Notes: generated by a model not told the origin, from the letters alone. Numbered from the stretch's first letter, positions 1-64,000 are shown. The stretch: 64,000 nt of DNA from a virus (IMGVR_UViG_3300032007_001727); one strand, 5' to 3'. Made by a program: numbers and translations.

Positions 1-736
1 TGATAAGCCGTGGCATCTAAAGAAAGCATTATTACCAATACTTGTAATATCATTTGGAATAAATGCCGCATCAGAACCCTTTATTAAGGTATTTGTAGCA
101 GTTTCAATAATTGCATTACAGTTGTTTCTTGAGTCATAAACTGTGTTGGCAGCATCAACTTCTACGTCTGATAACCCAATATAATCTATGTCTCGAATGA
201 CTGCATTTATATTTGTAATCGCACTCCCAATATATAAAAATTTAATTTCAACACAACCATCAAAAGCACTTCCGCTTATACTTGAAACACTGTTTGGAAT
301 AATAAGAGTCTGAAGGAAAGGTCTAGCACGTTCAATTCTCATTACCTCATCTTCAGATTCAACACAAGAACCTCCCCAACCATTATATAAGTCACCAATG
401 CTTGTGCATAATTCGCCGCAAACAATTGAGGTAATACAAGCACCGCTTAGTTCACCCGTTTCCGGGTCATAGTCCAAAGTTAAATAAGATTTAATCATGC
501 ATTGTGTCAGTTCTCCGCTTCCTTGTAACTCAACTTCCGTTGGTTCGCCAACCGGAACATCATTCAAATATTCTTGTACGGTTAACTTAACAAAGAATGG
601 TGGGGGGGGGTGGAACATCCGGATTGTAGTGTACGGCACTGTCAGCCATAACATAACTTACGTTTGGCTTTGGATAGTCCGTGGCAACATAGGCTGTATA
701 ATCGGCAACAGTTGCGAACTTTTGTAAATACTTCAT
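1..736 (-). pseudogene. BspA-like LRR protein, frameshifted (phase-OFF) at a C9 tract; 3' part runs off the window
   Basis: ATG at 736 reads MKYLQKFATVADYTAYVATDYPKPNVSYVMADSAVHYNPDVPPPP, then TILC and a stop at 589-587. The downstream frame (FFVKLTVQEY...GEPTEVELQGSGELTQCMI...SISGSAFDGC...DAANTVYDSRNNCNAIIETATN) is collinear with the 54484 paralogue. G9 at 602-610; C8 or C11 would restore the frame. Confidence 0.88.
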
Positions 737-771
737 AATTATTATTTAAAAATTTAAATATGGTTATTTTA

Positions 772-825
772 ACAATAAATATCACAAATATCTTGTTATT
801 TTCATATTTTTTATATATCTTTGCA
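772..825. promoter_or_regulatory. Back-to-back module: GATATTTAT motif (- strand, LRR gene) and TATCTTTGCA Bacteroidota -7 element (+ strand)
   Basis: The same module recurs at ~7465-7515, 54400-54445, 60808-60852 and 63790-63832. Confidence 0.65.
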
Positions 826-865
826 ACAGTTAAAAAAAATGTTAAATTTCAAACCTAATTAATTC

Positions 866-2053
866 ATGTACTACGAATATAGCAATATTAAGAAATTATT
901 GGTGTGCGGTAACATTTCTGATAACCTTGATAATTTCATTAAGAGAGTGGTGTCCAAAATGCCGGAAAAGGGTGACTATGGTAATAAGGTTCACCCAAAG
1001 GAAATTGAAAGAAGAGAAAGAATCAATCGTCAGTTACAAGAAAACCCGACATTAACACTAACAAGTGGATTGTATAAAAACAAATCAAGGTATTCTTTAG
1101 ATTCATTCAATTCATCAAAAAACAATTTGATTGTTGTGTGTGGTTCCAACACATTCTATAACGATGATTATGGTTTTTATTTGAAAAAACTTGAAGAATT
1201 AAATGAAGTATTGTCCATGAATGAAAGCCATGTGGTTTTTATCCGTGGAAATGATAACGTTACGCTCTTCAAGAACAACGTATTAAACCTCAGTAACATT
1301 AAATGTATAGATGACTTTGGTGTTATTAAGGTTGGTGGATTCAATATGATGTGCATCGGCGGTTCAATATCAATTGACCGTGAATGGAGGAAAAGACAAC
1401 AAGAAAGGATAGGTAAGAGGTTGTATGATGAAAATGAGGGAATGGATTATAGAGACGAAGACGTTGACAAAGTTTTCAATGAACTCCCCATCCATTGTAT
1501 TCTGTCCTCTTGCGGCCCGTCATTCTCCAACCCCGGTATGGGTTTCTATTCATCCTCCAATTGGGTTCGTGATGACAAGAAACTGTATGAGGATATGAAG
1601 AATGAGAGGCTGAAAATGGATGCCTTATATAATAAGTTGATTGAAAAGAACAAGAAACCATACTTATGGATTTATAGCAAGTTCAATATGAGCAGCGAAA
1701 GCAATATGAATGATATGATATTCTTATCCATTAATAATACGCGGTTCATCAACATCAATGAAACAATGCACGAGGCATATTCAATATCCGACATAACCAA
1801 AATTAAGGGTGACAATACGGAAGATGCCAAGTCAAAATCAAAAAGGCGCAAGAAGAAGGAGGAATCACGAATGGCTTGGGATGTCGCTTGGGAGATTCAA
1901 CATCCGGTTTATCACCTTGATGTTGGAAACGATAGACAGATTGTTGGAGACTTAATAGAAGATGGTAGGGAGATTGAAGATGAAGTTGACCAAGAGTTGG
2001 ACGAGGGAGAAATCTTCGGAGAAGAACAAATTGTTGAACGCTTGGAATTTTAA
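866..2053 (+). CDS. Calcineurin-like metallophosphoesterase-fold protein with degenerate motifs
   Basis: LVCGNISD, VFIRGNDN (for GNHD), IGGSISIDR; acidic C-terminal tail. Confidence 0.6.
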   Translation: MYYEYSNIKKLLVCGNISDNLDNFIKRVVSKMPEKGDYGNKVHPKEIERRERINRQLQENPTLTLTSGLYKNKSRYSLDSFNSSKNNLIVVCGSNTFYNDDYGFYLKKLEELNEVLSMNESHVVFIRGNDNVTLFKNNVLNLSNIKCIDDFGVIKVGGFNMMCIGGSISIDREWRKRQQERIGKRLYDENEGMDYRDEDVDKVFNELPIHCILSSCGPSFSNPGMGFYSSSNWVRDDKKLYEDMKNERLKMDALYNKLIEKNKKPYLWIYSKFNMSSESNMNDMIFLSINNTRFININETMHEAYSISDITKIKGDNTEDAKSKSKRRKKKEESRMAWDVAWEIQHPVYHLDVGNDRQIVGDLIEDGREIEDEVDQELDEGEIFGEEQIVERLEF

Positions 2054-2060
2054 GGTAATT

Positions 2061-4364: not shown

Positions 4365-4366
4365 CA

Positions 4367-6139: not shown

Positions 6140-7426
6140 TTATTGTTCAACCTTTGTCCAATTATTTAACTGGGTAATCCAAACATCATAGCCACTGCTA
6201 CCAATTGGAACGTAGAGGGTGCCTCCTGTCCTAACAATTTGGAAAGTAGAATTAGTTATTGTTGGTGCAGTTGTTGCAAGTGATGTTATTGCTGATAAAT
6301 TAGAACAATTAGTGAAAGCATTATTACCAATGCTTGTAACACTGTCCGGAATTGTTATGCTTGGTAAACTTGTACAATAATAGAAAGCACTATTACCAAT
6401 GCTTGTAACGGTGTTTGGAATTGTTATGCTTCTTAAACTTCTACAATCAATGAAAGCACTATCACCAATGCTTGTAACACCACTGCCAATGGTACAAGTT
6501 GTCATAGCAGAACAACCATAGAAAGCACTACCACCAATACTTGTAACACTGTCCGGAATTGTTATGTCTGATAAACTTTCACAATAAAAGAAAGTACTAT
6601 CACCAATGGTCGTAACACTGTCCGGAATTGTTATGCTTGTTAAACTAGAACAACTATGGAAAGCCCTATTACCAATACTTGTAACACCGCTGCCAAGGGT
6701 ACAAGTTGTCATAGCAGAACAATTTTGGAAAGCATTACTACCAATGCTTGTAACACTGTCCGGAATTGTTATGCTTGTTAAACTATAACAATTAGTGAAA
6801 GCACTGTCACCAATGCTTGTAACACCGCTGCCAATGGTACAAGTTGTCATAGCAGAACAATTTTGGAAGGTATAATCAGCAATGCTTGTAACACCACTGC
6901 CAATGGTGCAAGTTGTCATAGCAGAACAACCACTGAAAGCATAATTACCAATGCTTGTAACACTGTCCGGAATTGTTATGCTTGGTAAACTAGAACAATA
7001 AACGAAGGCATTATTACCAATGCTTGTGACAGTGTTTGGAATTGTTATGCTTGTTAAACTTCTACAACCATTGAAAGCATACTCACCAATGCTTGTAACA
7101 CCACTGCCAATGGTACAAGTTGTCATAGCAGAACAACCATAGAAAGCCCAATTACCAATGCTTGTACAGAGTTCACCGATTTCAGCGCTGACACAAGTTG
7201 TACTGTAACCGCTTATCATTGCTCTTGTAAGTTCCCCACTGCCTTCAATTTCGACAACTTCTCCGGTGCGAAGGGTTAACTTACAGAAAAATGGTGGTGG
7301 GGGGGGGGTAGGATTGTAATGGACATCACCCTCAGCAACACAAAGTGACACGTTTGGTTTTGGGTAGTCCGTGGCAACATACGCCGTATAGTCAGCATGT
7401 GTTGCAAATTCTTTAACGTACTTCAT
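6140..7426 (-). CDS. BspA-like leucine-rich repeat protein (LRR_5), phase-ON (C10 tract)
   Basis: About 13 repeats of TIPDSVTSIGxxAFxxC / TIGSGVTSIG; G10 at 7299-7308 is in frame. Confidence 0.93.
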   Translation of the reverse strand: MKYVKEFATHADYTAYVATDYPKPNVSLCVAEGDVHYNPTPPPPPFFCKLTLRTGEVVEIEGSGELTRAMISGYSTTCVSAEIGELCTSIGNWAFYGCSAMTTCTIGSGVTSIGEYAFNGCRSLTSITIPNTVTSIGNNAFVYCSSLPSITIPDSVTSIGNYAFSGCSAMTTCTIGSGVTSIADYTFQNCSAMTTCTIGSGVTSIGDSAFTNCYSLTSITIPDSVTSIGSNAFQNCSAMTTCTLGSGVTSIGNRAFHSCSSLTSITIPDSVTTIGDSTFFYCESLSDITIPDSVTSIGGSAFYGCSAMTTCTIGSGVTSIGDSAFIDCRSLRSITIPNTVTSIGNSAFYYCTSLPSITIPDSVTSIGNNAFTNCSNLSAITSLATTAPTITNSTFQIVRTGGTLYVPIGSSGYDVWITQLNNWTKVEQ

Positions 7427-7529
7427 AATATTATTTTTTAAAGTTTTAAATTAAGTTATTTATTTCTTGTTATAAATATCTTGTTATTTTCATATTTTTT
7501 ATATATCTTTGCAAAAAACCATACAAATT

Positions 7530-17835: not shown

Positions 17836-18522
17836 TTACTGCTCAACCTTGGTCCAATTATATAATCCCAAGTAATAGTTTGCATTTTGCATCCAAGTAT
17901 TATAGCCACTGCTACCTTGTGGAACGTATAGAGTACCATTAGATGCTATTTCATTAAATGTGTCATCAATTAAGGTAGGTGCCGTCATGGCAAGTGACGT
18001 AATGGACGTAAGACTACTACACTCAAGGAAACACTGACTGCCAACGCTTGTAACACCACTTGGTATCGTTATGCTTGTTAAACCACTACATTCTCTAAAT
18101 AAATCCTCACCAAGCCTTGTAACACCGCTTGGAATCGTTACGCTCGTTAAACTCGAACATTGACTGAAAACAAAATCACCAATGCTTGTAACGGTGTCCG
18201 AAATCGTTATGCTTGATAACTCATAGCACCCGCTGAAAACACTATCGCCAATGCTTGTGCACAGCGTACCGATTTCAACGCTTGTAATCTCATATTTCAT
18301 GTCCACCACATCATATATCATGCTATCGGTCAGTTCTCCGCTTCCCTCAATCTCCATGGGGCCACTATAACTTGATGTCAGTTTACAGAAGAAGGGTGAC
18401 TCCACGTACGGAGTATAGTGCATTTCGTTTTCTTGTACGCAAAGTGACACGTTAGGCAGTATCAATCCGCTTTGTGCAGCCTCATATGCGCTGTGATTCT
18501 CAAATTCTTTAACGTATTTCAT
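17836..18522 (-). CDS. Short BspA-like LRR protein without poly-C tract
   Basis: Same N-terminal module and WTKVEQ C-terminus; linker reads YTPYVESP. Confidence 0.9.
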   Translation of the reverse strand: MKYVKEFENHSAYEAAQSGLILPNVSLCVQENEMHYTPYVESPFFCKLTSSYSGPMEIEGSGELTDSMIYDVVDMKYEITSVEIGTLCTSIGDSVFSGCYELSSITISDTVTSIGDFVFSQCSSLTSVTIPSGVTRLGEDLFRECSGLTSITIPSGVTSVGSQCFLECSSLTSITSLAMTAPTLIDDTFNEIASNGTLYVPQGSSGYNTWMQNANYYLGLYNWTKVEQ

Positions 18523-18949
18523 AGTTAAATTAATTAATAAAGATTTAAGTTAAGTTATTTATTTCTCTTTATAAATATCACAATGAGTTTGTTTTTCATG
18601 GAGAAATATCCACATATTTCACGTCTTCCCGCATAAATAGGGAGGATTGAACGTATAGTAAGCGTAGAAATTAATTTTTTAAAACACTTAATTCATTGAT
18701 AATCAGATAGTTAGTGTTAAACCTTATGAATTAAGTTCATAAGACTTCATAAGGGTGAAAAATTGAAGGCGAAACCGTCAATGAAACATATATTGTTGTG
18801 GTGTTATAGTATGGTTTTGACTGACGGTTTTAAGGGAAATAAGAAAAAAAGAAAGGTGATAATGAAAGGGTGATAAAAAAAAGAATAAGAAGAAACAAGA
18901 ACAAATTAAAAGTAGTAATGATTAGAAGGAGTAATAAAAAGAAAGGTGA

Positions 18950-19272
18950 TATAAAAACCTTAAAACAACAAAAAACAATAATAAAATTGTGATAAAAATA
19001 GCATTTTTTCTGACCACTGCAAAAACCTTAAAAACTGTGATAAAAAGAAGCATTTTTTGTTACTGTTGTAAAAATCTTAAAAACCTTAATAAAAGGTGAT
19101 AAAAAACAGCATTTTTTCCGACTGTTGAAAAAACCACAAAAACTGCAATAAAAACCTTAAAAAGAAGCATTTTTTCCGGCTGTTGTAAAAACCTTAAAAA
19201 CCTTAATAAAAACCTTAAAAAGAAGCATTTTTTCCGGCTGTTGTAAAAACCTTAAAAACCTTAATAAAAACA
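18950..19272. repeat. Five imperfect ~50-60 bp tandem repeats with phased A-tracts (origin-like)
   Basis: AGCATTTTTT core at ~19000, 19049, 19108, 19166 and 19224 with AAAAACCTT subrepeats, in a 1-kb non-coding AT-rich gap. Confidence 0.8.
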
Positions 19273-19388
19273 GTTTTCTTTTATTAATATTTTAATTTTT
19301 ATTAATTTATTTAAACTCTGCTAAAATAAATTTCGCCTATATGAAAAATTTATTTTAACTTGGCTAAAATAAATTAATATGATATTAT

Positions 19389-19450
19389 TACCGGTACTAT
19401 ATTATTACATTATTATTTTCAGTACTATATTATTACATTATTATTACCGG
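19389..19450. repeat. Direct repeat GTACTATATTATTACATTATTATT (2 copies)
   Basis: Seen directly. Confidence 0.75.
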
Positions 19451-42885: not shown

Positions 42886-42908
42886 ATACAGTTGCCTTTA
42901 CTTATCTA

Positions 42909-46449: not shown

Positions 46450-46575
46450 CTTTTTCTCCTTTATTAAGCATATGGTTAATGCAAAGATATATAAAAAATG
46501 TGAGAAAACAAACAATGGTATATTTATATTAAGATTTTTTAAAGGTTTTAGAGATTTTTTATAAGAGAGAAAAAA

Positions 46576-47805
46576 ATGGGAAAAATGGTTAATGTTTTTA
46601 TGACACCAAGACAGTTTGGAGTGATTGAGGAAGCAAATTGGAACTTCCACAGAGGGTCGGTTGACAACTTGAGGCCGTATGTGAGCGACAACAAGTATCA
46701 CATGGGAGGAAGGGAAACCGGGCATTTCGGCAGCGGGACGTATTTCTCCACGTACAAGAACTCTAGCGGCTTGGACAAGTATCGCTCTGAGGGCGGTGAC
46801 CGTAGGTTTGTGTCGGTCGGTGACGGCGTGTACCGCGTTGACCTAGATATTTATAAGAATCTGTACAAGGTTAGGAGCAAGAGACAAGGTGACGTTCTCT
46901 ATACCTTGCTTAAAAACGTTAACCGTCTTGGAAACAGAATTGCCTACTTGGGAGAGTTTAGGCGCGGGTTGGCTTCGTATGACAATGCCGACTTGTACCA
47001 AGTTATAAGGGCAAACGCTAAGGGGCTTGGACTCAAGTGTCCCTCATACTATGAACTCACTAGGATGGCGCAGCGGTTGGGGATGGACCAAAATGACGTT
47101 AGGTCGCTGTCAACCGTGTTCATGGAGTTCAACGGCTACAACGGAGTGGACGTGAGCGGTGTGGAGTATTACGACAACACGAAGCACGGGTCTGTAATTT
47201 ATGACATGTCCAAGATTGGCGGTGAGGTCGAGGAGGTTATGCCGAAATCGTTATATACGGGGTATAAGGATTCACCGTATGACAACTCAGTCGTTAGGGA
47301 CGGTATCACGGACAAGAGGATTGAGTCGCTGAAAGGTGAAAATGCGTTTTGGGTGAAAGACCTTGACGGAATGCCGGTAAGCGAGGCCATGAGGCTGCTT
47401 AAGAACTATACGGACAGCGGGAACGCATTGGACTCCTATGAGTTCGATTCACTGAATGATGACTTGGCAAGCCGGTACCTTAGACTCTTGTTTGTCAAGG
47501 ACCCGAACTATGACTATTGGGGGGAAACGATTATTGACCGGATTTTGGAAGGACGGTACGGAAAGGGGTACTTGGAACGGATTGAAAAACTTGGAGCATA
47601 CTATTGGGTAAACTACTTGTCGAAGAAGAGTTCCGGACTCATTGCCTTTCTCAAAAGGTTCGGCATGGAATTGGATTGGAGCCTTGATGCGGAAGAGGAG
47701 AATAGGATGAAGAAGGGATATTTGGACAAGTTGACAAGGTATTTGCAGAGGGACTTGACGGAAGACGAAAGGGAGTACATTGACAAAAGATACTACAGCA
47801 TCTGA
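46576..47805 (+). CDS. Putative late protein with ADP-ribosyltransferase-like N-terminal domain
   Basis: FHRG, FGSGTYFS, VYRVDL, GYNGVD pattern; TATTTAT motif upstream. Confidence 0.45.
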   Translation: MGKMVNVFMTPRQFGVIEEANWNFHRGSVDNLRPYVSDNKYHMGGRETGHFGSGTYFSTYKNSSGLDKYRSEGGDRRFVSVGDGVYRVDLDIYKNLYKVRSKRQGDVLYTLLKNVNRLGNRIAYLGEFRRGLASYDNADLYQVIRANAKGLGLKCPSYYELTRMAQRLGMDQNDVRSLSTVFMEFNGYNGVDVSGVEYYDNTKHGSVIYDMSKIGGEVEEVMPKSLYTGYKDSPYDNSVVRDGITDKRIESLKGENAFWVKDLDGMPVSEAMRLLKNYTDSGNALDSYEFDSLNDDLASRYLRLLFVKDPNYDYWGETIIDRILEGRYGKGYLERIEKLGAYYWVNYLSKKSSGLIAFLKRFGMELDWSLDAEEENRMKKGYLDKLTRYLQRDLTEDEREYIDKRYYSI

Positions 47806-48188: not shown

Positions 48189-48290
48189 TTTTTCTTATTA
48201 TAGTCTTATGATTAATGCAAAGATATATAAAAAATCTGAGAAAAACAAAATATCGGTGATATTTATCTTTTGAGAAGAAGTTTTTTAAAT

Positions 48291-54380: not shown

Positions 54381-54483
54381 TATATTTTTGGTTTATTTAA
54401 TGCAAAGATATATAAAAAATATGAAAATAACAAGATATTTATAAAGAAAATAACTTATATTAAAATCTTTAAAAATAATAATT

Positions 54484-55875
54484 ATGAAGTATTTACAAAA
54501 GTTCGCAACTGCCGCTGACTATACGGCATACGTTGCCACGGATTATCCAAAGCCAAACGTAAGTTATGTTTTGGCTGACAGTGTTGTCCATTACAACCCG
54601 GATGTTCCACCCCCCCCCCCATCTTTCTTTGTTAAGTTAACCACACAAGATTACAGCGGTTATACCTTGGTTGGTGAACCAACAGAGGTTGAGTTACAAG
54701 GAAGCGGAGAACTGACACAATGTATGATTCTTCCTTATTTATCTTATGACCATGACCCTGGAACGGGTGATGTTTTCGGCACTTGCATATCATCAATTGT
54801 TTGCGGCGAATTATGCACAAGCATCGGTGACTTGTATAATTCTTGGGAAGGTTCTTGTATTAAATCTGAAGAAGACACGTATAAAATCCAAAACACTTGT
54901 GGTTTACTTCAAACCCTTGTTATTTCAAACAGTGTTTCAAGCATAAGCGGAAGTGCTTTTGATGGGTGTGACGGAATTAGAACTTTATACATTGGAAGTG
55001 GCATAACAAATATCAACCAAGTTTTCGCAATGGGCAACCTTCGTGGGTTATCAGACGTAGAAGTTGATGCTGCCAACACAGTTTATGACTCAAGAAATAA
55101 TTGTCATGCAATCATTGAAACCGCCACAAATACCTTGATAAAGGGTTCTAATGCGACATTTATTCCAAATGGTATTACAAGCATTGGTGAGTATGCTTTC
55201 CCTCATTGTACCGCTTTAACAAGTATGACAATTCCGGACAGTGTCACAAGCATTGGTCAATATGCTTTCGTTGAATGCTATGGTATGACAACTTGTACAA
55301 TTGGTAGTGGTGTTACAAGTATTGCTGATAATGCTTTCCAAAATTGTTCCGGTTTAACAAATGTGACAATACCAAGTGGTGTTACAAGCATTGGTCAATA
55401 TGCTTTTGGTAATTGTTCTAGTTTATCAAGTATAACAATTCCGGACAGTGTTACAAGCATTGGTGATAGTGCTTTCAGTGATTGTTCTGCTATGACAATT
55501 TGCAATATTGGCAGTGGTGTTACAAGTGTTGGTACCTATGCTTTCTATGACTGTTCTAGTTTATCAAGTATAACAATTCCGGACAATGTTACAAGCATTG
55601 GTAACAATGCTTTCAGTGATTGTTCTGCTATGACAATTTGCAATATTGGCAGTGGTGTTACAAGGATTAATGACGGTGCTTTCTATAGATGTTCTAGTTT
55701 ATCAGCAATAACCTCACTTGCAACGACAGCACCAACAATATCAAGTACTACATTCCGGGATATTAAGACCGGTGGTACTCTCTATGTTCCAAAAGGTAGC
55801 AGCGGTTATAACGTTTGGATGAGAACTTACAATTTTTACTTAGGTAAGTATGGTTGGACCAAGGTTGAACAATAA
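54484..55875 (+). CDS. BspA-like LRR protein, phase-ON (C11 tract)
   Basis: LRR_5 repeats; C11 at 54610-54620 is in frame. Confidence 0.93.
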   Translation: MKYLQKFATAADYTAYVATDYPKPNVSYVLADSVVHYNPDVPPPPPSFFVKLTTQDYSGYTLVGEPTEVELQGSGELTQCMILPYLSYDHDPGTGDVFGTCISSIVCGELCTSIGDLYNSWEGSCIKSEEDTYKIQNTCGLLQTLVISNSVSSISGSAFDGCDGIRTLYIGSGITNINQVFAMGNLRGLSDVEVDAANTVYDSRNNCHAIIETATNTLIKGSNATFIPNGITSIGEYAFPHCTALTSMTIPDSVTSIGQYAFVECYGMTTCTIGSGVTSIADNAFQNCSGLTNVTIPSGVTSIGQYAFGNCSSLSSITIPDSVTSIGDSAFSDCSAMTICNIGSGVTSVGTYAFYDCSSLSSITIPDNVTSIGNNAFSDCSAMTICNIGSGVTRINDGAFYRCSSLSAITSLATTAPTISSTTFRDIKTGGTLYVPKGSSGYNVWMRTYNFYLGKYGWTKVEQ

Positions 55876-55888
55876 TGCTTAACAATAA

Positions 55889-55915
55889 AAAGGTGGTCAA
55901 TATCTGACCACCTTT
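55889..55915. terminator. Bidirectional terminator of an LRR cassette
   Basis: Identical to 6100-6126 (reverse complement). Confidence 0.85.
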
Positions 55916-55928
55916 CTTTTTTTTTTAC

Positions 55929-56720
55929 TTATCCTTCAAGTCCGCTGAGGATATTCTTGGCCCAATCACGCAAATGTGGATTGTTTGCAAACGTGTCTTT
56001 CAGACGATTCTTGAAGTCCTTGATTTTCGGGTCGTTCTCGAGTTCCTTCATTCTCTTGTACTCCTTAATCTTCTTGTCCTTTTCGTTCAAGAACTCAATC
56101 AAGTCCATTCTGTCGGATGCTCCCAAATCAATCTCAGAATCCCAAAGTCTCTCCTTGATGATGTCAATCAACTCTTGCGTTGACTTGTTTGCAAACGGTG
56201 ACCTCTGAGCCGGTCCCTCTTCAACCGGAATTTCTCTTTCTTGTGGCGGAGTCATTCTGTTTCTGTTGAACCTTCTCTCAAACTCACCACCATTCATGTG
56301 GTGCATTGGAGCCGGTCTACGTGCCATTCGTGGCGCACGTCCAAACATTGTCTGAAACTCTTCGTCAACAATATCGTCAACGCCATTTGCCGGATTGTTG
56401 CAAGGGGAATCACATTCCTCACCGCACATATGGTGTCTTTCACAATGGGGTGGCATTGCGCCCATCATTTCCTCAATCGGATGGATTTCAAGCGCATTGC
56501 CGGTTCCGATGAGGAGTTTTGCGAATGTGAGGAGTGAAACTGAGTCCATGCGGTCATCGAGAAGCATTCTCAATTCTCTTTCATCAATGCCCAACTCTTC
56601 TGCCAACTCTGAAACCGTTGAATCGGTATCGCTGAGGAGGTTAAGAACTTTTGACTTCATGTCAGTCTTTGCCATGGCTACCCAATCGGTTGCCATCTGT
56701 TGTAAAACTCTCTTGTTCAT
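55929..56720 (-). CDS. Protein with N-terminal HTH-like domain
   Basis: TVSELAEELGIDERELRMLL. Confidence 0.6.
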   Translation of the reverse strand: MNKRVLQQMATDWVAMAKTDMKSKVLNLLSDTDSTVSELAEELGIDERELRMLLDDRMDSVSLLTFAKLLIGTGNALEIHPIEEMMGAMPPHCERHHMCGEECDSPCNNPANGVDDIVDEEFQTMFGRAPRMARRPAPMHHMNGGEFERRFNRNRMTPPQEREIPVEEGPAQRSPFANKSTQELIDIIKERLWDSEIDLGASDRMDLIEFLNEKDKKIKEYKRMKELENDPKIKDFKNRLKDTFANNPHLRDWAKNILSGLEG

Positions 56721-56802
56721 AAGTAATTTAAAATATGTTTCTTTGATTTTTTTGCAAAAGTATATAAAAAATTTGAGATAACAAAATAATTTAACACTTT
56801 TT

Positions 56803-58134
56803 TTACTTTTTATAGCAATTTTTGCGAATATTTATCAGAATATCATTGATGAGGCCAATATCTATTGATTCCTTTATTGTTGAAGTATTTATGGCCTTAT
56901 CCAATTCAACCATATTGGAATTGAGGTTTTCAATTAGTTCATCATATTCGAACTTATGGTTTCTGATGTCCAACAAAAATTCTCTGTCCCAAGTTCTTTC
57001 AACATTCACGCCGTTGCCTTCCGCTATTTCTTTCCCCATATGTATGAGTCTGAAGCAATGCATCATATTCTTGGAATCATAATTCTTATGGAGATTGCTT
57101 TCATATCTCTTCTGATTCCGGTATTTCTCCCAATCCTTATAATTCCTATAATCCACACAATGTTTCTTGTATGCATTTTCATTGAATGATGCATAGCATA
57201 TCGGTTTTTCCCCCTTTGATACGGAAGTTAATTTCAAGGATTGTGATTTGGGGCCGACGCACCCATTATACCGTGTGGGTTTTTTATTTTCATACCATTC
57301 ACCAAGTCTATCTTTGATGTCACCATCATTAATTCCATAGAAATTTATGATAAAATCAACCATATTGCTGATGTATGATTTATTCAATAGGTTCTCATAA
57401 GATTCTTTTTCCTCTGTCGTGGATGCCTTGAGGTCGGAAACTAGTTCATCGGTCTTGAGTTTACCTATGTTATCCAAACCTTCAAATATGTCACCAATGG
57501 TTATGTTCTCTTTTAGGAAGAACGTACCCCAATCGTAATACACGCCATACATATCTTGCATGTTTGGAATTTTAACCAATCCGCAATATTCTTGCTTCAA
57601 TCCCCTATATGACAACCAATTCTCCAATTTCGTGCTTCCTTGATTAAAGAATGTATATGTAAAATCGAGCACCCCTTTTCTTTCAACTCTCTCCTTTTCC
57701 CAATTTATCATCTTGTTCAAGCCTTTCGCCTTTTCAATCTGTGCCCTAGCATACCCGATAAACGGTTTAAAACATTCCTTTGTGATGAATTCCTCCTTGT
57801 TTTCAAACAAAGGTATGATGACATCATTCGGAGGTGTTATAATCTTATATGTTGGAACAAATAGAGCCTCCAATGTATTTGGATTGGATTTTAACAACAT
57901 ACCGAAAAATTTACCAATTTCGTAGAAATTGTTATCGTTCCTATCATCTGAGACAAGGTCTTCATAGAACATGTCCAAACCGTATAGTTTTTCCTTTGGT
58001 ATTATGAAAATACCTTTTGTGTCAATGTCACTGCCATCGACATTTAGGTTATACAAATGGGAACCGGAAATATACGAATAAACCAATTCTCCCTTTTCTT
58101 TCGGAAATTTAAAAGTAAAATTATTGATGTCCAT
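56803..58134 (-). CDS. Predicted nucleotidyltransferase (RlaP/YcgL, T4 NrdC.11-like)
   Basis: GSHLY.L....SDIDTKGIF, NPNTLE.LF, YDSKNMMHCFRL. Confidence 0.85.
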   Translation of the reverse strand: MDINNFTFKFPKEKGELVYSYISGSHLYNLNVDGSDIDTKGIFIIPKEKLYGLDMFYEDLVSDDRNDNNFYEIGKFFGMLLKSNPNTLEALFVPTYKIITPPNDVIIPLFENKEEFITKECFKPFIGYARAQIEKAKGLNKMINWEKERVERKGVLDFTYTFFNQGSTKLENWLSYRGLKQEYCGLVKIPNMQDMYGVYYDWGTFFLKENITIGDIFEGLDNIGKLKTDELVSDLKASTTEEKESYENLLNKSYISNMVDFIINFYGINDGDIKDRLGEWYENKKPTRYNGCVGPKSQSLKLTSVSKGEKPICYASFNENAYKKHCVDYRNYKDWEKYRNQKRYESNLHKNYDSKNMMHCFRLIHMGKEIAEGNGVNVERTWDREFLLDIRNHKFEYDELIENLNSNMVELDKAINTSTIKESIDIGLINDILINIRKNCYKK

Positions 58135-58150
58135 TATGAATAAAAAAATG

Positions 58151-58476
58151 TAGTCCCTAGGAGAGTCGAACTCCTCTTTAGAGAGTCAACTACCCACGAA
58201 CCAAAGATTCGTGGGCTTGCAGAAAACCTTTAGCGGGTTTTGAGCGTTTGGGCAGTTGACGGTGCCCTGCCAACCAAGGCAACAAGTCTTCCGTCAATCG
58301 GAAGAGGTGTCGAGGTTGGGTGTTCTGTAATGTTCACTGACGTGTTCCAATCAGCGTCGAAGACTTCTGATTAGAGAAACTGATACCACTTGCTTGCTTG
58401 CAAGCGTTGCCTTATATGTCAGTATGTGTTTGAACATTATGAAAATCTCTCGTCCTAACCGATAGACGAAGGGACC
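58151..58476 (-). tRNA. tRNA-Glu(UUC) interrupted by a 254-bp insertion at the 3' edge of the anticodon loop
   Basis: 5' half GGTCCCT TC GTCTATCGGTTAGGAC G AGAGA TTTTCAT; 3' half TCTCT AAAG AGGAG TTCGACT CTCCT AGGGACT A. Confidence 0.9.
58185..58438 (-). mobile_element. Non-autonomous IS200/IS605 remnant: tnpB 3' fragment with omegaRNA/right end
   Basis: Fragments MFKHILTYKATLASKQVVSV and VFDADWNTSVNI (RuvC-III-like); ends in the hairpin GCCCACGAATCTTTGGTTCGTGGG-TAGTTGAC; preceded by TTCAT. Confidence 0.82.
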
Positions 58477-58606
58477 AAGAAATTCTTTCCAAATGCCATA
58501 ACTACTGCTCATCTACGTCCGTCCGTTGATTTTGATACTATCTCAAGGTTACAGACTTTACGGCGCTACTATTAACCTTTTTTCGCTTTTTTCTTTGGAA
58601 AGAATA

Positions 58607-59422
58607 TTATTCTTCAAACGTTATCCTAGATTCGACATATTGCCTATCCTCACCTTTAAGGATTGGCATTTCGTAATCTATTAGCCAACCTTCATCGGAT
58701 TTAACCACCGCTGTCCCTCTCTTTTCGGCAACAGATAAGTTATTCCAATTTATGTTGAATTTTTCCATCAGCATATCTTGAATTTGTGAGGTATTCTTTC
58801 CTTTTAATTCCTTATGGGAGAAGAATGCTTGACCTAGGCTGCTAACCGAATTCCTAGAACAGTCTTGTTGTCTCCAAAGGATACAGTTTGTAACCTCAGA
58901 CAATGGGACGTTGAATACCCTAGCATCGAACAAGGCACCGGTCTTTAGTGCCCTCTTATATCCATTTATGGCCCTTTCAACCATTTCGGATGCATCGCCG
59001 TATATTTCACGGTAGTCACCGTCGGTTCCATATTCAGAAATGAAGGCATTTGCCTTTTTGGCAAATATTCTGTTGAAATACAGTGTACACATGGATGCAA
59101 CGACCGAGCATACTTTTTGTACGTTATAGTCAAACCATGCACATGTATCCAATGTATTATAGTCCACCAATACTAGGGTAATCTCATCGGATTGGGTATA
59201 GCCAAAGACGCAGCCTTGAATGTTTTTGCAGAGTTCCAATGTAGTTTCTTGCATTGTCTCCATGAACCTTTGGTCAAACGGCTTCACAAAGCCTTTTGTG
59301 AAGGTATGGAACGCCTTTCCGTCCAATCTTATAATAACCGGTGTCCTCCTCAATAAATATGTTTTTGACCGATTCTCATAGTTGAGTTTCATCCGGTCAC
59401 CCAAACTATCTTTTGTTGCCAT
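58607..59422 (-). CDS. thg1: tRNA(His) guanylyltransferase Thg1-like protein
   Basis: DRMK.YE, IRLDGKAFHTFT, YTQSDEI, FDARVF, WRQQD..RNS. Confidence 0.92.
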   Translation of the reverse strand: MATKDSLGDRMKLNYENRSKTYLLRRTPVIIRLDGKAFHTFTKGFVKPFDQRFMETMQETTLELCKNIQGCVFGYTQSDEITLVLVDYNTLDTCAWFDYNVQKVCSVVASMCTLYFNRIFAKKANAFISEYGTDGDYREIYGDASEMVERAINGYKRALKTGALFDARVFNVPLSEVTNCILWRQQDCSRNSVSSLGQAFFSHKELKGKNTSQIQDMLMEKFNINWNNLSVAEKRGTAVVKSDEGWLIDYEMPILKGEDRQYVESRITFEE

Positions 59423-59428
59423 CGTTTT

Positions 59429-59626
59429 TTATGAGTTTAATTCCAAGTCACCTCTAATAATCTCAAATCTTCTGTTCCATTTCCAAAATATGAACTCAAA
59501 TTCATACATATACCAATATTTGTGTCTGAATATAATGGTTGGCAGTATGTTTATCCAACCATATTGATAAGATGTCTCGAATTCCTTTGTGACATCACTT
59601 ATTTCATATTTAAAGATTTTAATCAT
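59429..59626 (-). CDS. Small hypothetical protein
   Basis: Start MIKIFKY after a promoter. Confidence 0.55.
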   Translation of the reverse strand: MIKIFKYEISDVTKEFETSYQYGWINILPTIIFRHKYWYMYEFEFIFWKWNRRFEIIRGDLELNS

Positions 59627-59754
59627 ATTAGGTAACTTTTTGCAAAAATATATAAAAAATTTGGAATAACAAAATAATTTAACACTTTTTTTACTTTGAA
59701 ATTGAAATTGTTGCAAAAAATAAGGGGTCACGTTTAATGACCCCTTATTTTCTT

Positions 59755-60237
59755 TTAATAACACCAATCAATGTCATCCTCCCACCAAGGGAAATCAGAT
59801 TCACCAATAAGGTCAACACCGGTAGGTGGCTTGCAACCAATTGGCTTTCTGATTGCTTGGCACTTGTGGATTGGTGCATCGTTCCTCTTATCGAGGCCGA
59901 GTTCAACGCAATGTTCGCCACTGTCGACAAAATCATCGAATGCTTCACGAGCCTCCAAGAACTCGCCAAGGTCATCGTAGTCTTGCCTTCTTGGTTCGTC
60001 CACTTCCAAAGCGTAACCAAATCTTAAGTTGTCGTTTGGTGGTGTACCACAGCACCTTGTTGGTGCAAAGTCTTCTTCCTCGTCCTCGAAGTCATCATCC
60101 CAATCATCATCTTCGTCATCACAACAGAAGCATTTCTTGGATGGCTTTTCGAAAACGTCCTCAACTGCGTCTTTGATTTTCTCAACAACCTCATCAAAGG
60201 TTGGCAACGCAACAATAAAAACATTCACTTTTTGCAT
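59755..60237 (-). CDS. Acidic Cys-rich hypothetical protein
   Basis: ORF with A-rich leader and promoter. Confidence 0.65.
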   Translation of the reverse strand: MQKVNVFIVALPTFDEVVEKIKDAVEDVFEKPSKKCFCCDDEDDDWDDDFEDEEEDFAPTRCCGTPPNDNLRFGYALEVDEPRRQDYDDLGEFLEAREAFDDFVDSGEHCVELGLDKRNDAPIHKCQAIRKPIGCKPPTGVDLIGESDFPWWEDDIDWCY

Positions 60238-60346
60238 AATTCAAATTTAAATTACGGTTAATTATCGTTTTTTATATCACACAGTGCAAAGATATATATT
60301 TTTTTAACAATTCACAAGTTTTTTGATAACTTTTTTTAACTTTTTT

Positions 60347-60793
60347 TCAACGTCTGCCTCTATTTCCCCCGTAATGCGGCCTATTTGTGGTATTTGGTCT
60401 TCCAAAGGACCGGCTTCTGTCTTGGTGGTTGAAGTTTCCGTGTGGCCTTACTGTGCCGTTGTAGTTACGTGTTGGAGGCATATGTCTTGGTTGTGGCTTA
60501 TGATGCCAATCCCTCGGAACCGGTCTGAATGACCTCCTATATACATTAGGCGGCAGTGGTCTGTAATATCTGTAGAAGATGTATCTGTTATGCCTATAAT
60601 AAGGATAATAATACATTCCGTCATACATATAGTACATAATGTAACCGTCAACGTCATAATGTGGCGTTCCGTGTGTTATGACAAAAGTGTAGTCGGTTTC
60701 GCTGTAAGGACTGTAAATCTGTGCAGTTGCCTCACAAGATGTCATTGTCATAAAGATGACCAATGACAAAATAAAGTTTAAAATTTTTTTCAT
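60347..60793 (-). CDS. Putative lipoprotein, Tyr/Arg/Pro-rich
   Basis: MKKILNFILSLVIFMTMTSC lipobox. Confidence 0.7.
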   Translation of the reverse strand: MKKILNFILSLVIFMTMTSCEATAQIYSPYSETDYTFVITHGTPHYDVDGYIMYYMYDGMYYYPYYRHNRYIFYRYYRPLPPNVYRRSFRPVPRDWHHKPQPRHMPPTRNYNGTVRPHGNFNHQDRSRSFGRPNTTNRPHYGGNRGRR

Positions 60794-60870
60794 AATTTGA
60801 GTATGTTTTTGCAAATATATACAAAAAATAACGAAAAAACAAAATATTTATATAGAAAAACCTAAATATT

Positions 60871-62243
60871 ATGATATTTTTAAAGAAATTTGCAACGACT
60901 AGTGACTATGACTCCTACGTTGCCACAGATTATCCGAAGCCAAACGTAAGTTATGTTGTGGCCGGTACTTCGGTACATTTTACCCCCTCCCCATATTCTG
61001 TAAATTAACCCTTAATAATGGTGAAGTTGTTAAACTTGAAGGAAGTGGAACACTAACAAGTGCAATGACGAATCCCTATATAGATTCTATCGCTAGTGCT
61101 AAAATCGGTGAACTTTGCACGAGTATTGGTAATAAGGCTTTTGTTAATTGTTCCGCCATGACAAGTTGCACCATTGGTAATGGTGTTACAAGTATTGGTG
61201 ACCAGGCTTTCAGTGGGTGTTCTGCTATGACGAGTTGTACTATTGGAAGTGGTGTTACAACCATTGGTGCTAGTGCTTTCACCGGTTGTCGTAGTTTATC
61301 AACTATAACAATTCCGGACAGTGTTACAAGCATTTATTATGGGGCTTTCGCTTTTTGTTATGGTTTAACGAGTATAATAATTCCGGACAGTGTTATAGAA
61401 ATTGTTGGCGGTACCTTCCAATGGTGTAAAGCAATGACAACTTGTATCATTGGGAATGGTGCTACAAGCATTAGACGTAATACCTTTGGAATGTGTTCTG
61501 CCATGACAACTTGTACCATTGGTAGTGGTGTTACAAGCATTGATAATAGCGCTTTCAGTGGTTGTACTAGTTTAACAACCATAAACATTCCAAACAATGT
61601 TACAACAATTGATATTTGTGCTTTCCAAGGTTGTACTAGTTTATCAAGTATAACAATCCCGGATAGTGTTACAAGTATTGGTAATCAGGCTTTTGGTGGT
61701 TGTTCTGCCATGACAACTTGTACAATTGGCAGTGGTGTCACAACCATTGGCAGTTCTATTTTCTCTAAGTGTTCTAGTTTATCAAACATAACAGTTGATG
61801 CCGCAAATACAACCTATGACTCAAGAAACAATTGCAATGCAATTATTCAAACAAGCACAAACACTTTAATACAAGGTTGTAGTACAACTATTATACCGAA
61901 CACTGTTACAAGCATTGGTAATCAGGCTTTCCAATTTTGTTCTAGTTTAACAAACATAACAATTCCGGACAGTGTCACAACCATTGGTAATATTGCTTTC
62001 CAAAGTTGTTCTGCTATGACAACTTGTACAATTGGTAGTGGCGTTACAAGTATTGGTAGTAATGCTTTCGGTTATTGTAGTAGTTTATCAGCAATAATCT
62101 CGCTTGCCACAACAGCACCAACAACAACAAATAATACTTTTTATAGAGTTAAGACCGGTGGTACTCTCTATGTTCCACAAGGTAGCAGCGGTTATAATAC
62201 TTGGATGAACCAATTGCCTAATTGGACAAAACTTGTACAATAA
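60871..62243 (+). pseudogene. BspA-like LRR protein, frameshifted (phase-OFF) at a C5-T-C4 tract
   Basis: ATG 60871 reads MIFLKKFATTSDYDSYVATDYPKPNVS...HFTPSP and stops at 61008; one extra C joins IFCKLTLNNGEVVKLEGSG and the 61065-62243 LRR ORF. Confidence 0.88.
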
Positions 62244-62258
62244 TACTTAACAATAATA

Positions 62259-62285
62259 AAAGGTGGTCAATATCTGACCACCTTT
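62259..62285. terminator. Bidirectional terminator of an LRR cassette
   Basis: Identical hairpin, third copy. Confidence 0.85.
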
Positions 62286-62291
62286 CTTTTT

Positions 62292-63581
62292 TTACTTTGC
62301 AATTACCAAGCAATAGTCTTTCTTTCCTTTCTGCAACAACAAATACTTGTCATCGATGAGTTGACCGTGTCCGACAATCACTTTGTCATTATTAACCTTT
62401 TTCTTGTTAATGGAAAATCCGTTTGCCTTTATCAACTTCTTGGCCTCAGTCTTCGATGTAATTTTATCGTGCATCAACGCAATATCGATAATCGGCATTC
62501 CGTTTTCAAATTCACCCTTATTGACTTCAACTTTGCTAACATCCTTCATTACATCTAGGAATGTATCCTCATCCATCCTTTCCAATGCCTCCGTGGTGCC
62601 GTTTCCAAAAAGAATTTCTGATGCTGCAATAGCCTTGTTGTAGTCATTCTCAGAATGAACCAAGCAAGTCATGTATTTTGCAAGTTCGCCTTGTAGGTAT
62701 CTCTTGCTAGGATTCTCACGGTGCTTTGAAATCATTGCACCTATTTCTTCAAGTGGAATTAAGGTGAACTTCTTGATAAAGGATTCAGCATCCTCGTCAC
62801 TTTGATTCAACCAAAACTGATAGAATTGGAACGGTGTTGTCTTATTTGGGTCGAGCCAAACGCTGTTGCCTTCTGTTTTGCCGAATTTCCTACCGTCGGC
62901 ACAAGTTATCAAATCCCAAGTGATTCCGCATACATCATCCTTGCCCAATACCTTATGGATAAGGTCTTGTCCGGTTACCATGTTTCCCAAATTATCGGTC
63001 CCGGCAATCTGAAGTTTGCACCCATATTCTCTGTATAAGTGCAAGAAATCATACCCTTGCAAGAGACCATATGAGAACTCTTGGAATGATATGCCGTTTC
63101 CCTCTCTTTCGAGGCGCTTTCGCACGTTTTCCTTTGCCATAAGGTAGTTCACGGTGATTTTCTTGCCGACATCACGTATAAAATCCAAGAATTTATAATC
63201 CTTGTACCAATCATAGTTATTCACCATAATGGCACCGTTTGGCAAACTTGAATCAAAGTCAATTATCTTTGAAATCTGTTTCTTGACACATTCTACATTG
63301 TGGAAGACCGTTTCCATTGAAATGGCTTTTCTTTCCTCGCTCTTGCCGCTTGGGTCACCGATGGCACAAGTTGCACCACCCACAAGTATTATTGGCTTAT
63401 GCCCGAATTGCTGAAACATTCTAGCAACCATAAGTCCGACCATATGGTGAACACCTAGCGAATCCGCCGTAGGGTCCAAGCCTATGTACAGCGTTGTCGG
63501 TTTACTTAGGCATTCTTCAAGATTGCCGAATACTTGTGAATACAAGCCCCTTTCCTTGAGTTCTTTAATTAATGGATTCAT
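62292..63581 (-). CDS. tyrS: Tyrosyl-tRNA synthetase with altered HIGH motif
   Basis: YIGLDPTADSL, GGAT..IGDPSG, EFSYGLLQGYD, KFGKT, S4-like tail. Confidence 0.95.
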   Translation of the reverse strand: MNPLIKELKERGLYSQVFGNLEECLSKPTTLYIGLDPTADSLGVHHMVGLMVARMFQQFGHKPIILVGGATCAIGDPSGKSEERKAISMETVFHNVECVKKQISKIIDFDSSLPNGAIMVNNYDWYKDYKFLDFIRDVGKKITVNYLMAKENVRKRLEREGNGISFQEFSYGLLQGYDFLHLYREYGCKLQIAGTDNLGNMVTGQDLIHKVLGKDDVCGITWDLITCADGRKFGKTEGNSVWLDPNKTTPFQFYQFWLNQSDEDAESFIKKFTLIPLEEIGAMISKHRENPSKRYLQGELAKYMTCLVHSENDYNKAIAASEILFGNGTTEALERMDEDTFLDVMKDVSKVEVNKGEFENGMPIIDIALMHDKITSKTEAKKLIKANGFSINKKKVNNDKVIVGHGQLIDDKYLLLQKGKKDYCLVIAK

Positions 63582-63623
63582 TTCTTTCTTTTTTATTATT
63601 TTGTTTAACAACTAATAAGTTAC

Positions 63624-63773
63624 TTATTCAACGCATACAAAAAGTCTTCGCTTGTTTATGATACTGTTGCTGATTGCAAGCATCTGCTTTTCTGATAGCC
63701 TAGAGCGTTTATCCTTTGACTTACGGTTAGACTTTTCACTATTATTCTTTTTACCTCTTTTTCTGTAGAACAT
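63624..63773 (-). CDS. Small basic protein (49 aa)
   Basis: Hand-translated MFYRKRGKKNNSEK...; promoter upstream. Confidence 0.45.
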   Translation of the reverse strand: MFYRKRGKKNNSEKSNRKSKDKRSRLSEKQMLAISNSIINKRRLFVCVE

Positions 63774-63871
63774 AGTTGTTTTTTGTTTTTGGCAAAGATA
63801 TATAAAAAATATGAAAGCGACAAGATATTTATTGTTAAAATAACTTAATTTAAAACTTTAAAAAATAATTT

Positions 63872-64000
63872 ATGAAATATGTTAAAGAATTTGCAACAAG
63901 TGCTGAGTACACAGCATACGTTGCCACGGATTACCCCAAGCCAAACGTGAGTTACGTTGTGGCTGACAGTGCCGTACACTACCATGCCCCCCCCGCCCCC
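63872..64000 (+). CDS. BspA-like LRR family gene, 5' end only (phase unknown)
   Basis: MKYVKEFATSAEYTAYVATDYPKPNVSYVVADSAVHYHAPPAP; C8-G-C5+ tract at the window end. Confidence 0.85.
   Translation, partial: MKYVKEFATSAEYTAYVATDYPKPNVSYVVADSAVHYHAPPAP

Follow-up and report, generated by a model that had tools for sequence, protein, structure and literature searches.

Poly-C tracts as probable on/off switches in leucine-rich-repeat genes of a large rumen phage

Why should a phage place all the G/C runs of 7 or more in 64 kb of its DNA at the same codon position of a single gene family, and why should about half of the genes concerned be out of frame exactly there? The question arises from a 64,000-nt stretch (hereafter the window) of the viral genome IMGVR_UViG_3300032007_001727, in which six dispersed leucine-rich-repeat (LRR) paralogues, here called c1 to c6, share an N-terminal module (N-module) of about 40 residues. 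The initial annotation reported that five of the six carry a C-rich tract in the Pro linker right behind this module, that two of them are frameshifted in the tract with intact downstream frames, and that a poly-Pro run elsewhere uses mixed codons. These observations were confirmed at every coordinate (Table 1). The accompanying interpretation, that each gene is an independent ON/OFF switch coupling a constant virion-anchor module to a different LRR binding domain and so varying host range or adhesion, is only partly supported.

Table 1. Paralogues, tracts and promoter-like motifs in the window (c1 to c6, LRR paralogues; tract bases as read on the coding strand).
Feature	Coordinates	Strand	Description
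c1	1..736	-	OFF; N-module peptide ORF 587-736 (49 aa, = protein record P0014); LRR frame open from the tract to the window edge (at least 199 codons)
c1 tract	602..610	-	C9 (G9 on the + strand); C8 or C11 would restore the frame
Motif upstream of c1	805..826	-	Promoter-like motif TTGCAAAGATATATAAAAAATA
c2	6140..7426	-	ON, 428 aa, PF13306; AF2 model with N-module at residues 4-37, linker at 38-47, then LRR solenoid
c2 tract	7299..7308	-	C10 (G10 on the + strand), in frame (T-P-P-P-P-P)
Motif upstream of c2	7493..7514	-	Promoter-like motif
c3	17836..18522	-	No tract; 228 aa, PF13306; divergent N-module, linker PYVESP
Motif upstream of c4	54400..54421	+	Promoter-like motif
c4	54484..55875	+	ON, 463 aa (= P0003); closest paralogue of c1
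c4 tract	54610..54620	+	C11, in frame; identical in JGI contig L003
Motif upstream of c5	60809..60830	+	Promoter-like motif
c5	60871..62243	+	OFF; N-module peptide 60871-61008 (45 aa, = P0029); LRR frame open to 62243, called as a 392-aa product from 61065
c5 tract	60983..60992	+	C5-T-C4, interrupted, one base short of being in frame; identical in L003, split the same way in the 366,366-bp ENA contig
Motif upstream of c6	63790..63811	+	Promoter-like motif
c6	63872..64000	+	Start of a sixth paralogue, cut by the window end; locus split 48 aa + 143 aa (LRR_5) in the ENA contig's gene calls
c6 tract	63987..64000	+	C8-G-C5+, truncated by the window end

The runs in c1, c2, c4 and c6 are the only G/C runs of 7 or more in the window, where a first-order Markov model expects 0.54 runs of 8 or more and 0.12 of 9 or more, and all lie in the same alignment column, within the coding sequence at codons ~40-45, at or above the length of about 7-8 at which a homopolymer can slip. 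Nor is the coding preferred elsewhere, since CCC makes up 15% of Pro codons outside the family and the only other PPPP in the window, near 9223, is coded CCG CCG CCT CCA. Relatives without a tract have 0-2 Pro at this linker, so the run is a derived expansion. The promoter-like motif has 15 sites in the window against 0.01 expected.

The proteins themselves are of the BspA type. All complete copies match the Pfam profile PF13306 (LRR_5), with E values from 5e-28 to 4e-97 and scores of 321 bits for c2, 213 for c4, 262 for the c5 body and 98 for c3 against a gathering cut-off of 27.7, and the AF2 model of c2 is a regular predicted solenoid with pLDDT 95. The element that carries them is, as the initial annotation held, a very large phage: contigs are 366,366 bp (the closely related ENA contig of Table 1) and 366,743 bp, with a gp25-like baseplate gene, DNA polymerase B, an amidase and tRNA-related genes.

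Whether the tracts behave as contingency loci was addressed by comparing their lengths across assemblies, and the support is indirect. In the c1/c4 subfamily, the stretch between GTTCCA and TTCTTTGTTAA is 13 nt (C9) in c1 and in two homologous contigs, L021 and L022, 14 nt (C10) in a third, L023, and 15 nt (C11) in c4, which covers all three frames in contigs from four different rumen assemblies, although the homologues are only 80-93% identical and one pair of contigs may be chimeric. The latter concern arises because L021 and L022 carry identical LRR genes behind different flanks, so that some short contigs may be joined across the repeated 5′ module or the locus may be gene-converted, and for this reason L021 is not taken as firm evidence for a C9 allele of the c4 locus. 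A further case is seen in protein records, where P0001, a 369-aa ON protein on the 366,366-bp ENA contig, and P0010, a 48-aa peptide on a JGI contig of 53,754 bp, share the N-module, including the private signature VYYNPA, and the tail of P0010 (HSSVS-stop) is exactly the -1 reading of PFFCKLT, as expected for the loss of one C; this comparison, like that of all tracts of the ENA contig outside the window, is at the protein level only. In general, the protein database holds about as many OFF peptides of the tract-bearing family (P0010, P0012, P0013, P0014 and P0024-P0029) as ON proteins (P0001, P0002, P0003, P0009 and P0023).

The downstream frames are uniformly open in the OFF copies examined, at 199+ codons in c1, 392 in c5, 143 in c6, 108+ in L021, 194+ in L022, 290+ in L023 and about 440 in L006, a viral contig with a related N-module gene, and dN/dS is 0.36-0.57. 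Similar homopolymers have arisen convergently in related phage genes. Related N-module genes in other viral contigs have G10-G12 in a Gly loop at codons 18-21, in frame in two contigs (L031 and L037) and out of frame in two (L060 and L006). A complete 353,025-bp IMG/VR phage genome, G002, has G11 (ON) and G10 (OFF) in the linker before FCKLTL of LRR genes that have the same order of N-terminal module, linker homopolymer and LRR, but with a different N-module (MNVNDCFSHELGG...) and a Gly-coding G run; only two LRR tracts were found there, against at least nine tract-bearing copies in the present phage.

Some observations sit less comfortably with a fast switch. The c4 and c5 tracts are identical in L003 (100% over 9.6 kb, possibly the same population), and both genes are in the same state in the ENA contig. 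The C9 of c1 is the same in a strain 7% diverged (L022), which is unexpected if switching is very rapid, although one in three such matches would occur by chance. Moreover, two of the five tracts are interrupted, c5 by T and c6 by G, which would slow slippage, as expected if run purity is not under strong selection.

The explanation we favor, with moderate confidence and on the evidence of assemblies alone, is that the window derives from a ~366-kb phage of the cow rumen, probably infecting Bacteroidales, that carries at least 12 dispersed BspA-type LRR genes. In this view, each gene is its own transcription unit, with a copy of the promoter-like motif, a conserved N-terminal beta-alpha-beta-beta module of ~38 residues, a short Pro linker written in this lineage as a pure C homopolymer of 8-12 bases, and a variable LRR solenoid with a conserved C-terminal cap. 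During phage DNA replication the run would gain or lose single bases by slipped-strand mispairing, each copy would flip independently between full-length protein (ON) and an N-module-only peptide of 45-51 residues (OFF), and the phage population would carry many different combinations of expressed LRR proteins. What the analysis establishes is the anatomy, the in-frame and out-of-frame states, the intact downstream frames and the length differences between homologues and assemblies; it is an inference that these differences arise by frequent, reversible slippage within a population, that the variation is selected as bet-hedging, and that the LRR proteins bind any particular target or have a place in the virion.

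The last point bears on the parts of the initial interpretation that are not supported. A virion-anchor role for the N-module finds no support in homology: searches of PHROGs, Pfam, BFVD and the Atlas gave no function for the N-module, which belongs to a large, mostly phage-borne family and by itself has no Pfam or PHROG hit, the LRR family's PHROGs hits (phrog_35892, 18805 and 9915) are all of unknown function, BFVD fold hits are only unannotated LRR proteins, and no similarity to a tail-fibre, receptor-binding or virion-attachment domain was seen. One paralogue (P0002) lies next to a gp25-like baseplate gene and a 2351-aa protein, but the six copies in the window lie among tRNA-processing, helicase and nucleotide-metabolism genes. 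A role for the LRR domains in host range or adhesion is likewise supposition on present evidence.

Other explanations must be considered. One, which we think unlikely, is that the run is a tolerated mutational hazard in a length-tolerant linker of a large, redundant family, with the out-of-frame copies being recently inactivated paralogues on the way to decay and the switching having no selected function. The interrupted tracts, the same c5 state in three contigs, the OFF state shared by c1 and the 7% diverged strain, a dN/dS that indicates only moderate constraint, and the quick turnover of the LRR bodies in this large family can all be read this way. However, none of the seven or more OFF copies has a stop or second frameshift downstream, whereas by our rough estimate the approximately 60 substitutions on the c1 lineage would be expected to create 2-3 stops if neutral; pure CCC coding was retained in paralogues that differ by 25-50% around the tract; and homopolymers arose independently at three positions in related phage genes.

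It is also possible, but again unlikely, that the genomic frame is fixed and the out-of-frame copies are expressed by recoding, either by +1 ribosomal slippage at the CCC-C or poly-Pro stall site, possibly helped by the phage's own tRNA-Pro(UGG), or by RNA polymerase stuttering on the run. CCC-C is a +1-prone site and consecutive prolines stall ribosomes; c1, L021 and L022 share a C9 configuration requiring a +1 shift on CCC CCC CCC A, with open frames kept downstream; and the window encodes a tRNA-Pro with anticodon UGG. This tRNA, however, has a normal 7-nt anticodon loop with G37 and not the 8-nt loop of a frameshift suppressor, so a suppressor role was rejected. Furthermore, c5, L023 and P0010 need the opposite (-1) correction, which fits random length change and argues against a single programmed shift, the interrupted c5 run offers no good slippery site, and tract lengths differ between homologues at the DNA level. 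Least likely is an assembly or sequencing artefact. G/C runs of 9-12 are error-prone on several platforms, the data are assemblies only, and at c6 the window and its probable ENA counterpart (P0012) differ by several substitutions clustered at the tract while the rest of the N-module is identical. Yet A/T runs of 8-11 inside genes are in frame, so the assembly shows no general homopolymer error; the c5 break is not in a long homopolymer and is reproduced in L003 and the ENA contig; C9 at c1 recurs in the independent assembly of L022; and OFF peptides of the family appear in many independent assemblies.

Wider searches added little. DNA pattern scans for the N-module and for poly-C followed by FCKLT found nothing in IMG/VR or the JGI metagenome collection, megablast of 5.5 kb against GenBank phages found nothing, tblastn found only distant LRR hits, and a scan of genome contigs gave only three Bacteroidales MAG loci with no informative neighbours. 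Look-ups of hypothetical OFF-state downstream products of c2 and c4, and of P0010, found nothing on record, and a look-up of the TyrRS was also unsuccessful. The absence of c2 from the protein collection was considered as a sign of polymorphism, but the 392-aa c5 product is likewise absent from that collection although it is on record elsewhere, and the argument was dropped.

Mutational on/off switching is textbook for bacterial surface proteins but has only recently been recognised in phages, and it has been shown experimentally in only a few. A close case is that of the hypermutable polyG tracts in receptor-binding-protein genes of Campylobacter Fletchervirus phages (Sorensen et al. 2021, Cell Rep 35:109214, as cited in bioRxiv 10.1101/2025.10.21.683753), where G/C homopolymers of 7-11 bases lie inside genes for presumed binding proteins and length changes shift the frame, creating subpopulations with different protein sets. 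The present case differs in being a dispersed family of at least 12 paralogues, each with its own promoter-like motif and a shared N-module, with the tract at the module/linker junction; in encoding BspA-type LRRs rather than the Fletchervirus proteins; in its ~366-kb genome and probable rumen Bacteroidales host; and in that a virion role and the switching itself are inferred from sequence. In T2/T4 and other phages, homopolymers in coding sequences give reversible frameshifts by polymerase slippage and act as bet-hedging (Gomez, Barrick & Waters 2025, bioRxiv 10.1101/2025.10.21.683753), but those runs are mostly of 6 bases or more, scattered over all gene classes and under-represented in tail-fibre-type genes, whereas here long G/C runs of 8-12 are confined to one paralogous family at one homologous position. 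Among bacteria, the Neisseria Opa repertoire comprises about 11 opa genes for binding proteins, each with its own tract just after a conserved N-terminal segment, which switch independently to give combinatorial expression; there the repeat is a pentanucleotide (CTCTT) in a signal peptide, and here it is a mononucleotide run after a folded N-module with no signal-peptide features. In Candidatus Mycoplasma girerdii (PMC5476646), eight BspA-like LRR genes carry simple-sequence repeats, mostly dinucleotides, and length variants that put the genes in or out of frame were demonstrated in metagenomic reads, while our comparison rests on a homopolymer in phage assemblies.

If the favored reading holds, a huge phage that keeps a dozen independently switchable LRR genes would produce thousands of genotype combinations in every burst, a cheap way to hedge against variable hosts or defences in a community as dense as the rumen. 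It would also give a function to the abundant, unannotated LRR gene families of large gut phages and define a widespread phage N-terminal module (over 2,000 sequence clusters) as the constant part of a modular system. In practice, frameshifted LRR genes in phage assemblies should not be discarded as pseudogenes or errors, and tract alleles could serve as markers of phage population dynamics.

A more speculative possibility, which we regard as less likely than not but which the data do not rule out, is that huge rumen phages run a programmed, combinatorial repertoire of N-module-tagged binding proteins, a viral counterpart of the Opa repertoire, in which the OFF product, the N-module alone, would itself be functional, for example by occupying the docking site. 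In this reading, selection for reversible switching has produced at least three local devices in the same gene architecture: poly-C in the Pro linker, as in this phage; poly-G in a Gly loop or Gly linker, as in L006, L031, L037, L060 and G002; and a 21-bp palindrome whose 3-nt centre reads TTA (Leu) in some copies and TAA (stop) in others, the TAA form being the exact reverse complement of the TTA form, which suggests a hairpin-loop flip.

In the window, which has 38% G+C, a scan for homopolymers finds only four G/C runs of 7 or more, against a first-order Markov expectation of 0.54 runs of 8 or more and 0.12 runs of 9 or more. Six-frame translation and a DNA alignment of the six gene starts (paralogues c1 to c6) show that all four runs sit in the same column, and so does the interrupted run of c5. 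On the coding strand each run is poly-C, lying right after a shared N-terminal segment (MKY.KEFAT..DYTAYVATDYPKPNVS......VHYNP) and right before FF[CV]KLT. All complete copies match PF13306. CCC makes up 15% of Pro codons outside the family, and the only other PPPP is coded CCG CCG CCT CCA. Hence the observation made in the initial annotation, that C-homopolymers recur in the Pro linker of dispersed paralogues and coincide with their frameshifts, is correct in every checkable detail.

Locations of the paralogues, their tracts and other features discussed in the text (window coordinates unless a contig is named)
Feature	Coordinates	Strand	Tract	State or content
c1	1-736	minus	C9 (G9 at 602-610)	Stops after 49 aa; LRR frame open for 199+ codons to the window edge; C8 or C11 would be in frame
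c2	6140-7426	minus	C10 (G10 at 7299-7308)	In frame, 428 aa
c3	17836-18522	minus	none	228 aa
c4	54484-55875	plus	C11 (54610-54620)	In frame, 463 aa
c5	60871-62243	plus	C5-T-C4 (60983-60992)	Stops after 45 aa; LRR frame open to 62243; one more base would be in frame
c6	63872 onward	plus	C8-G-C5+ (C8 at 63987-63994)	Cut by the window end
Promoter-like motif, example site	805-826	minus
Promoter-like motif, example site	19554-19575	minus		At the far end of the ORF-poor stretch upstream of c3
Promoter-like motif, example site	38529-38550	minus
Promoter-like motif, example site	46479-46500	plus
Promoter-like motif, example site	48215-48236	plus
ORF-poor stretch upstream of c3	18523-19570			About 1 kb, no ORF above 43 aa
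tRNA-Pro(UGG)	39696-39770	plus		Only tRNA found in the window
ORF-poor stretch	42440-42900			C6 runs at 42473, 42485 and 42507; seven A7-A9 runs
Gene differing in size between assemblies	46576-47805			409 aa in the window, 406 aa on the ENA contig
Ends of short-read contigs L002, L003 and L007	797, 6121, 7485, 54400, 63970			Borders of LRR genes
Poly-G run in contig L006	L006:3055-3066		G12	Gly loop of the N-module, out of frame
Poly-G runs in contigs L031, L037 and L060	About nt 52-65 of the gene		G10, G11, G10	Gly loop; in frame, in frame, out of frame
Palindrome, example in contig L048	L048:634-657
Palindrome, example in contig L055	L055:1546-1569

Window proteins recur on contigs of 366,743 bp (JGI/ENA) and 366,366 bp (ENA ERZ27256887), the latter being a distinct assembly or strain, as seen from a gene product that differs in size there. 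In the gene calls of this closely related contig the c6 locus is split into a 48-aa product plus a 143-aa LRR_5 product. Neighbourhoods elsewhere on that ENA contig include a gp25-like baseplate protein, DNA polymerase B, an amidase and TnpB-type genes, while the window itself encodes a CCA-adding enzyme, TyrRS, Thg1, RlaP, a UvrD-type helicase, a dNMP kinase and a single tRNA-Pro(UGG). This is a very large phage. Related short contigs come from cow-rumen data sets, among them PRJEB21624 and a sample labelled STEW18, and the few bacterial-genome hits to the N-module are in rumen or gut Bacteroidales MAGs; by inference, therefore, the host is probably a Bacteroidales member.

About 90 nt upstream of c1, c2, c4, c5 and c6 is conserved and contains the motif TTGCAAAGATATATAAAAAATA, which, with up to 3 mismatches allowed, occurs 15 times in the window against 0.01 expected and also precedes other genes. 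It is probably a phage promoter class, and each paralogue therefore seems to have its own copy of a general promoter-like element. Between paralogues, and excluding the divergent c3, the upstream region and N-module are 68 to 89% identical, whereas the LRR bodies are 50 to 76% identical. An AlphaFold2 model of c2 (pLDDT 95) predicts a small beta-alpha-beta-beta unit at residues 4-37, an unstructured linker at residues 38-47, which holds the prolines, and a regular LRR solenoid with a C-terminal cap. A profile of the 40-residue N-module finds 2,363 sequence clusters at E of 0.001 or better, almost always at the very N-terminus; of 84 hits of 180 aa or more, 52 carry LRR_5 and most of the rest have no Pfam domain, and a PHROGs search gives no function. 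The module is thus a widespread, mostly phage-borne N-terminal domain joined to variable C-terminal parts, which fits an adaptor role, although nothing in these data shows what it docks to.

Several comparisons bear on whether the frameshifts are real. A/T runs of 8 to 11 inside genes are in frame, so there is no sign of general homopolymer error. L003, a JGI contig from sample 3300028886, is 100% identical to window 54400-63970, including C11 and C5TC4, and the ENA contig has the same 463-aa c4 and the same 45+392 split of c5. Moreover, the break in c5 lies in an interrupted run, which is not a typical miscall site, and L022, a contig from another rumen assembly, is 93% identical to the c1 flank without gaps and has C9 in the same place. 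The out-of-frame states are therefore properties of the genomes. The family fragments assemblies: independent short-read contigs of this phage (L002, L003 and L007) all break at the borders of the LRR genes, in the repeated promoter/N-module or in the C-terminal cap.

The evidence that the tracts vary is indirect, resting on assemblies and protein records and not on reads. In the c1/c4 subfamily, the stretch between GTTCCA and TTCTTTGTTAA is 13 nt (C9) in c1 and in the contigs L021 and L022, 14 nt (C10) in the contig L023, and 15 nt (C11) in c4, so that all three frames occur among close homologues from four assemblies. At the protein level only, P0001, a 369-aa in-frame (ON) protein found only on the ENA contig, and P0010, a 48-aa peptide on a 53,754-bp JGI contig, share the N-module, including a private VYYNPA signature, and the tail of P0010 (H-S-S-V-S-stop) is exactly what a loss of one C from the P0001 sequence (P-F-F-C-K-L-T) predicts. 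Several N-peptides are recorded on only one of the two large contigs (P0014 and P0024 on one; P0001 and P0012 on the other), while ordinary genes are on both, which suggests that differences between the two assemblies concentrate at these genes, though the record counts are not fully reliable. Across the database, truncated (OFF) peptides of the tract-bearing family (P0010, 12, 13, 14, 24-29) are about as numerous as ON proteins (P0001, 2, 3, 9, 23). Fast switching, on the other hand, is argued against by the c4 and c5 tracts being unchanged in L003, by C9 being shared between c1 and its 7%-diverged counterpart, and by two tracts being interrupted.

None of the OFF copies examined has a stop or a second frameshift downstream; the open frames extend over 199+ codons in c1, 392 in c5, 143 in c6, 108+ in L021, 194+ in L022, 290+ in L023 and about 440 in L006, a 68-kb contig with a related gene. 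Pairwise dN/dS in the LRR part is 0.36 to 0.57, including ON/OFF pairs, which shows moderate constraint and argues against long-standing pseudogenes but does not prove selection for switching. The LRR bodies behind conserved flanks differ strongly between strains, L022 against c1 being 47% identical at the protein level downstream, against 93% nucleotide identity upstream. Further, L021 and L022, two ~1.7-kb contigs from different assemblies, carry identical LRR gene starts (a 49-aa peptide, C9 and 108 identical downstream codons), one behind the c4-locus flank (helicase) and the other behind the c1-locus flank. Either cassette exchange through the conserved 5' module is frequent, or the paralogues have undergone gene conversion, or short-read contigs are chimeric across that repeat. 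As to recoding, a single programmed ribosomal shift is unlikely, since c1-type copies need +1 while c5, L023 and P0010 need -1. The phage tRNA-Pro(UGG) is structurally ordinary, with a 7-nt anticodon loop and G37, and a link to decoding of the CCC runs is speculative. Low-level +1 slippage on CCC runs, or RNA-polymerase stuttering, could still make OFF copies leaky and is not excluded by these data.

Similar tracts are seen in other phages. The gene in L006 has its poly-G run inside the N-module, in a Gly loop at codons 18-21, and among 34 N-module genes in IMG/VR contigs three (L031, L037 and L060) have the same Gly-loop run; in both out-of-frame cases, as in the in-frame ones, the downstream frames are open. 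A complete 353,025-bp IMG/VR phage (G002) has LRR genes with a different N-module and a G run in the linker before FCKLTL, G11 in frame in one (L063) and G10 out of frame in another (L061). By contrast, a fragment of another large phage (G001) has four tandem N-module LRR genes and no G/C run of 8 or more, and tract-less relatives have 0 to 2 Pro at the linker. Homopolymers in the first ~45 codons have thus arisen repeatedly, at different positions, in this gene architecture, and this is the strongest argument that switching is selected and not accidental.

Phage contingency loci are documented. Fletchervirus phages carry 7-11-G tracts in receptor-binding-protein genes (Sorensen et al. 2021, as cited in bioRxiv 10.1101/2025.10.21.683753), T2/T4 homopolymers act as bet-hedging loci (bioRxiv 10.1101/2025.10.21.683753), and BspA-like genes are phase-variable by simple repeats in Ca. 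Mycoplasma girerdii (PMC5476646). What is new here is the scale and organization, for which our literature search found no published description: a dispersed family of at least 12 paralogues in one huge phage, each copy with its own promoter-like element and a shared N-module, the tract always at the module/linker junction, and about half the copies OFF. Functionally, this looks like the Neisseria Opa repertoire transferred to a virus. While the tracts, their out-of-frame states and the open frames behind them are established from the sequences, slipped-strand switching is inferred from comparative and convergent evidence without read-level proof; it is the best explanation, and we hold it with moderate confidence. 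The interpretation offered in the initial annotation is therefore supported in part, since its proposals that the constant module is a virion anchor and that the LRR domains vary host range remain hypotheses.

A different candidate device was seen among the N-module genes of IMG/VR contigs. Twelve of them (L041, L045-L049, L051, L054-L058) encode R-Q-N-L-[I/V]-L-P on a 21-bp palindrome, AGGCAAAA[T/C]-TTA-[A/G]TTTTGCCT. In six of these the centre is TAA, an in-frame stop, and that sequence is the exact reverse complement of the TTA form. The arms covary (T..A against C..G), the frames stay open for 350 to 430 codons after the stop, and contig 3300028591_000213 holds both forms. This is a candidate hairpin-loop-flip on/off switch, for which a literature search found no precedent. 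In the N-module LRR gene of L043 (IMGVR_UViG_3300014047_000001), two in-frame TAG codons interrupt an otherwise open frame, and the phage probably reads TAG as sense. Within the window itself, the stretch at 42440-42900, where the A7-A9 runs recur at intervals of roughly 10 to 85 nt, looks like a repetitive intergenic region.
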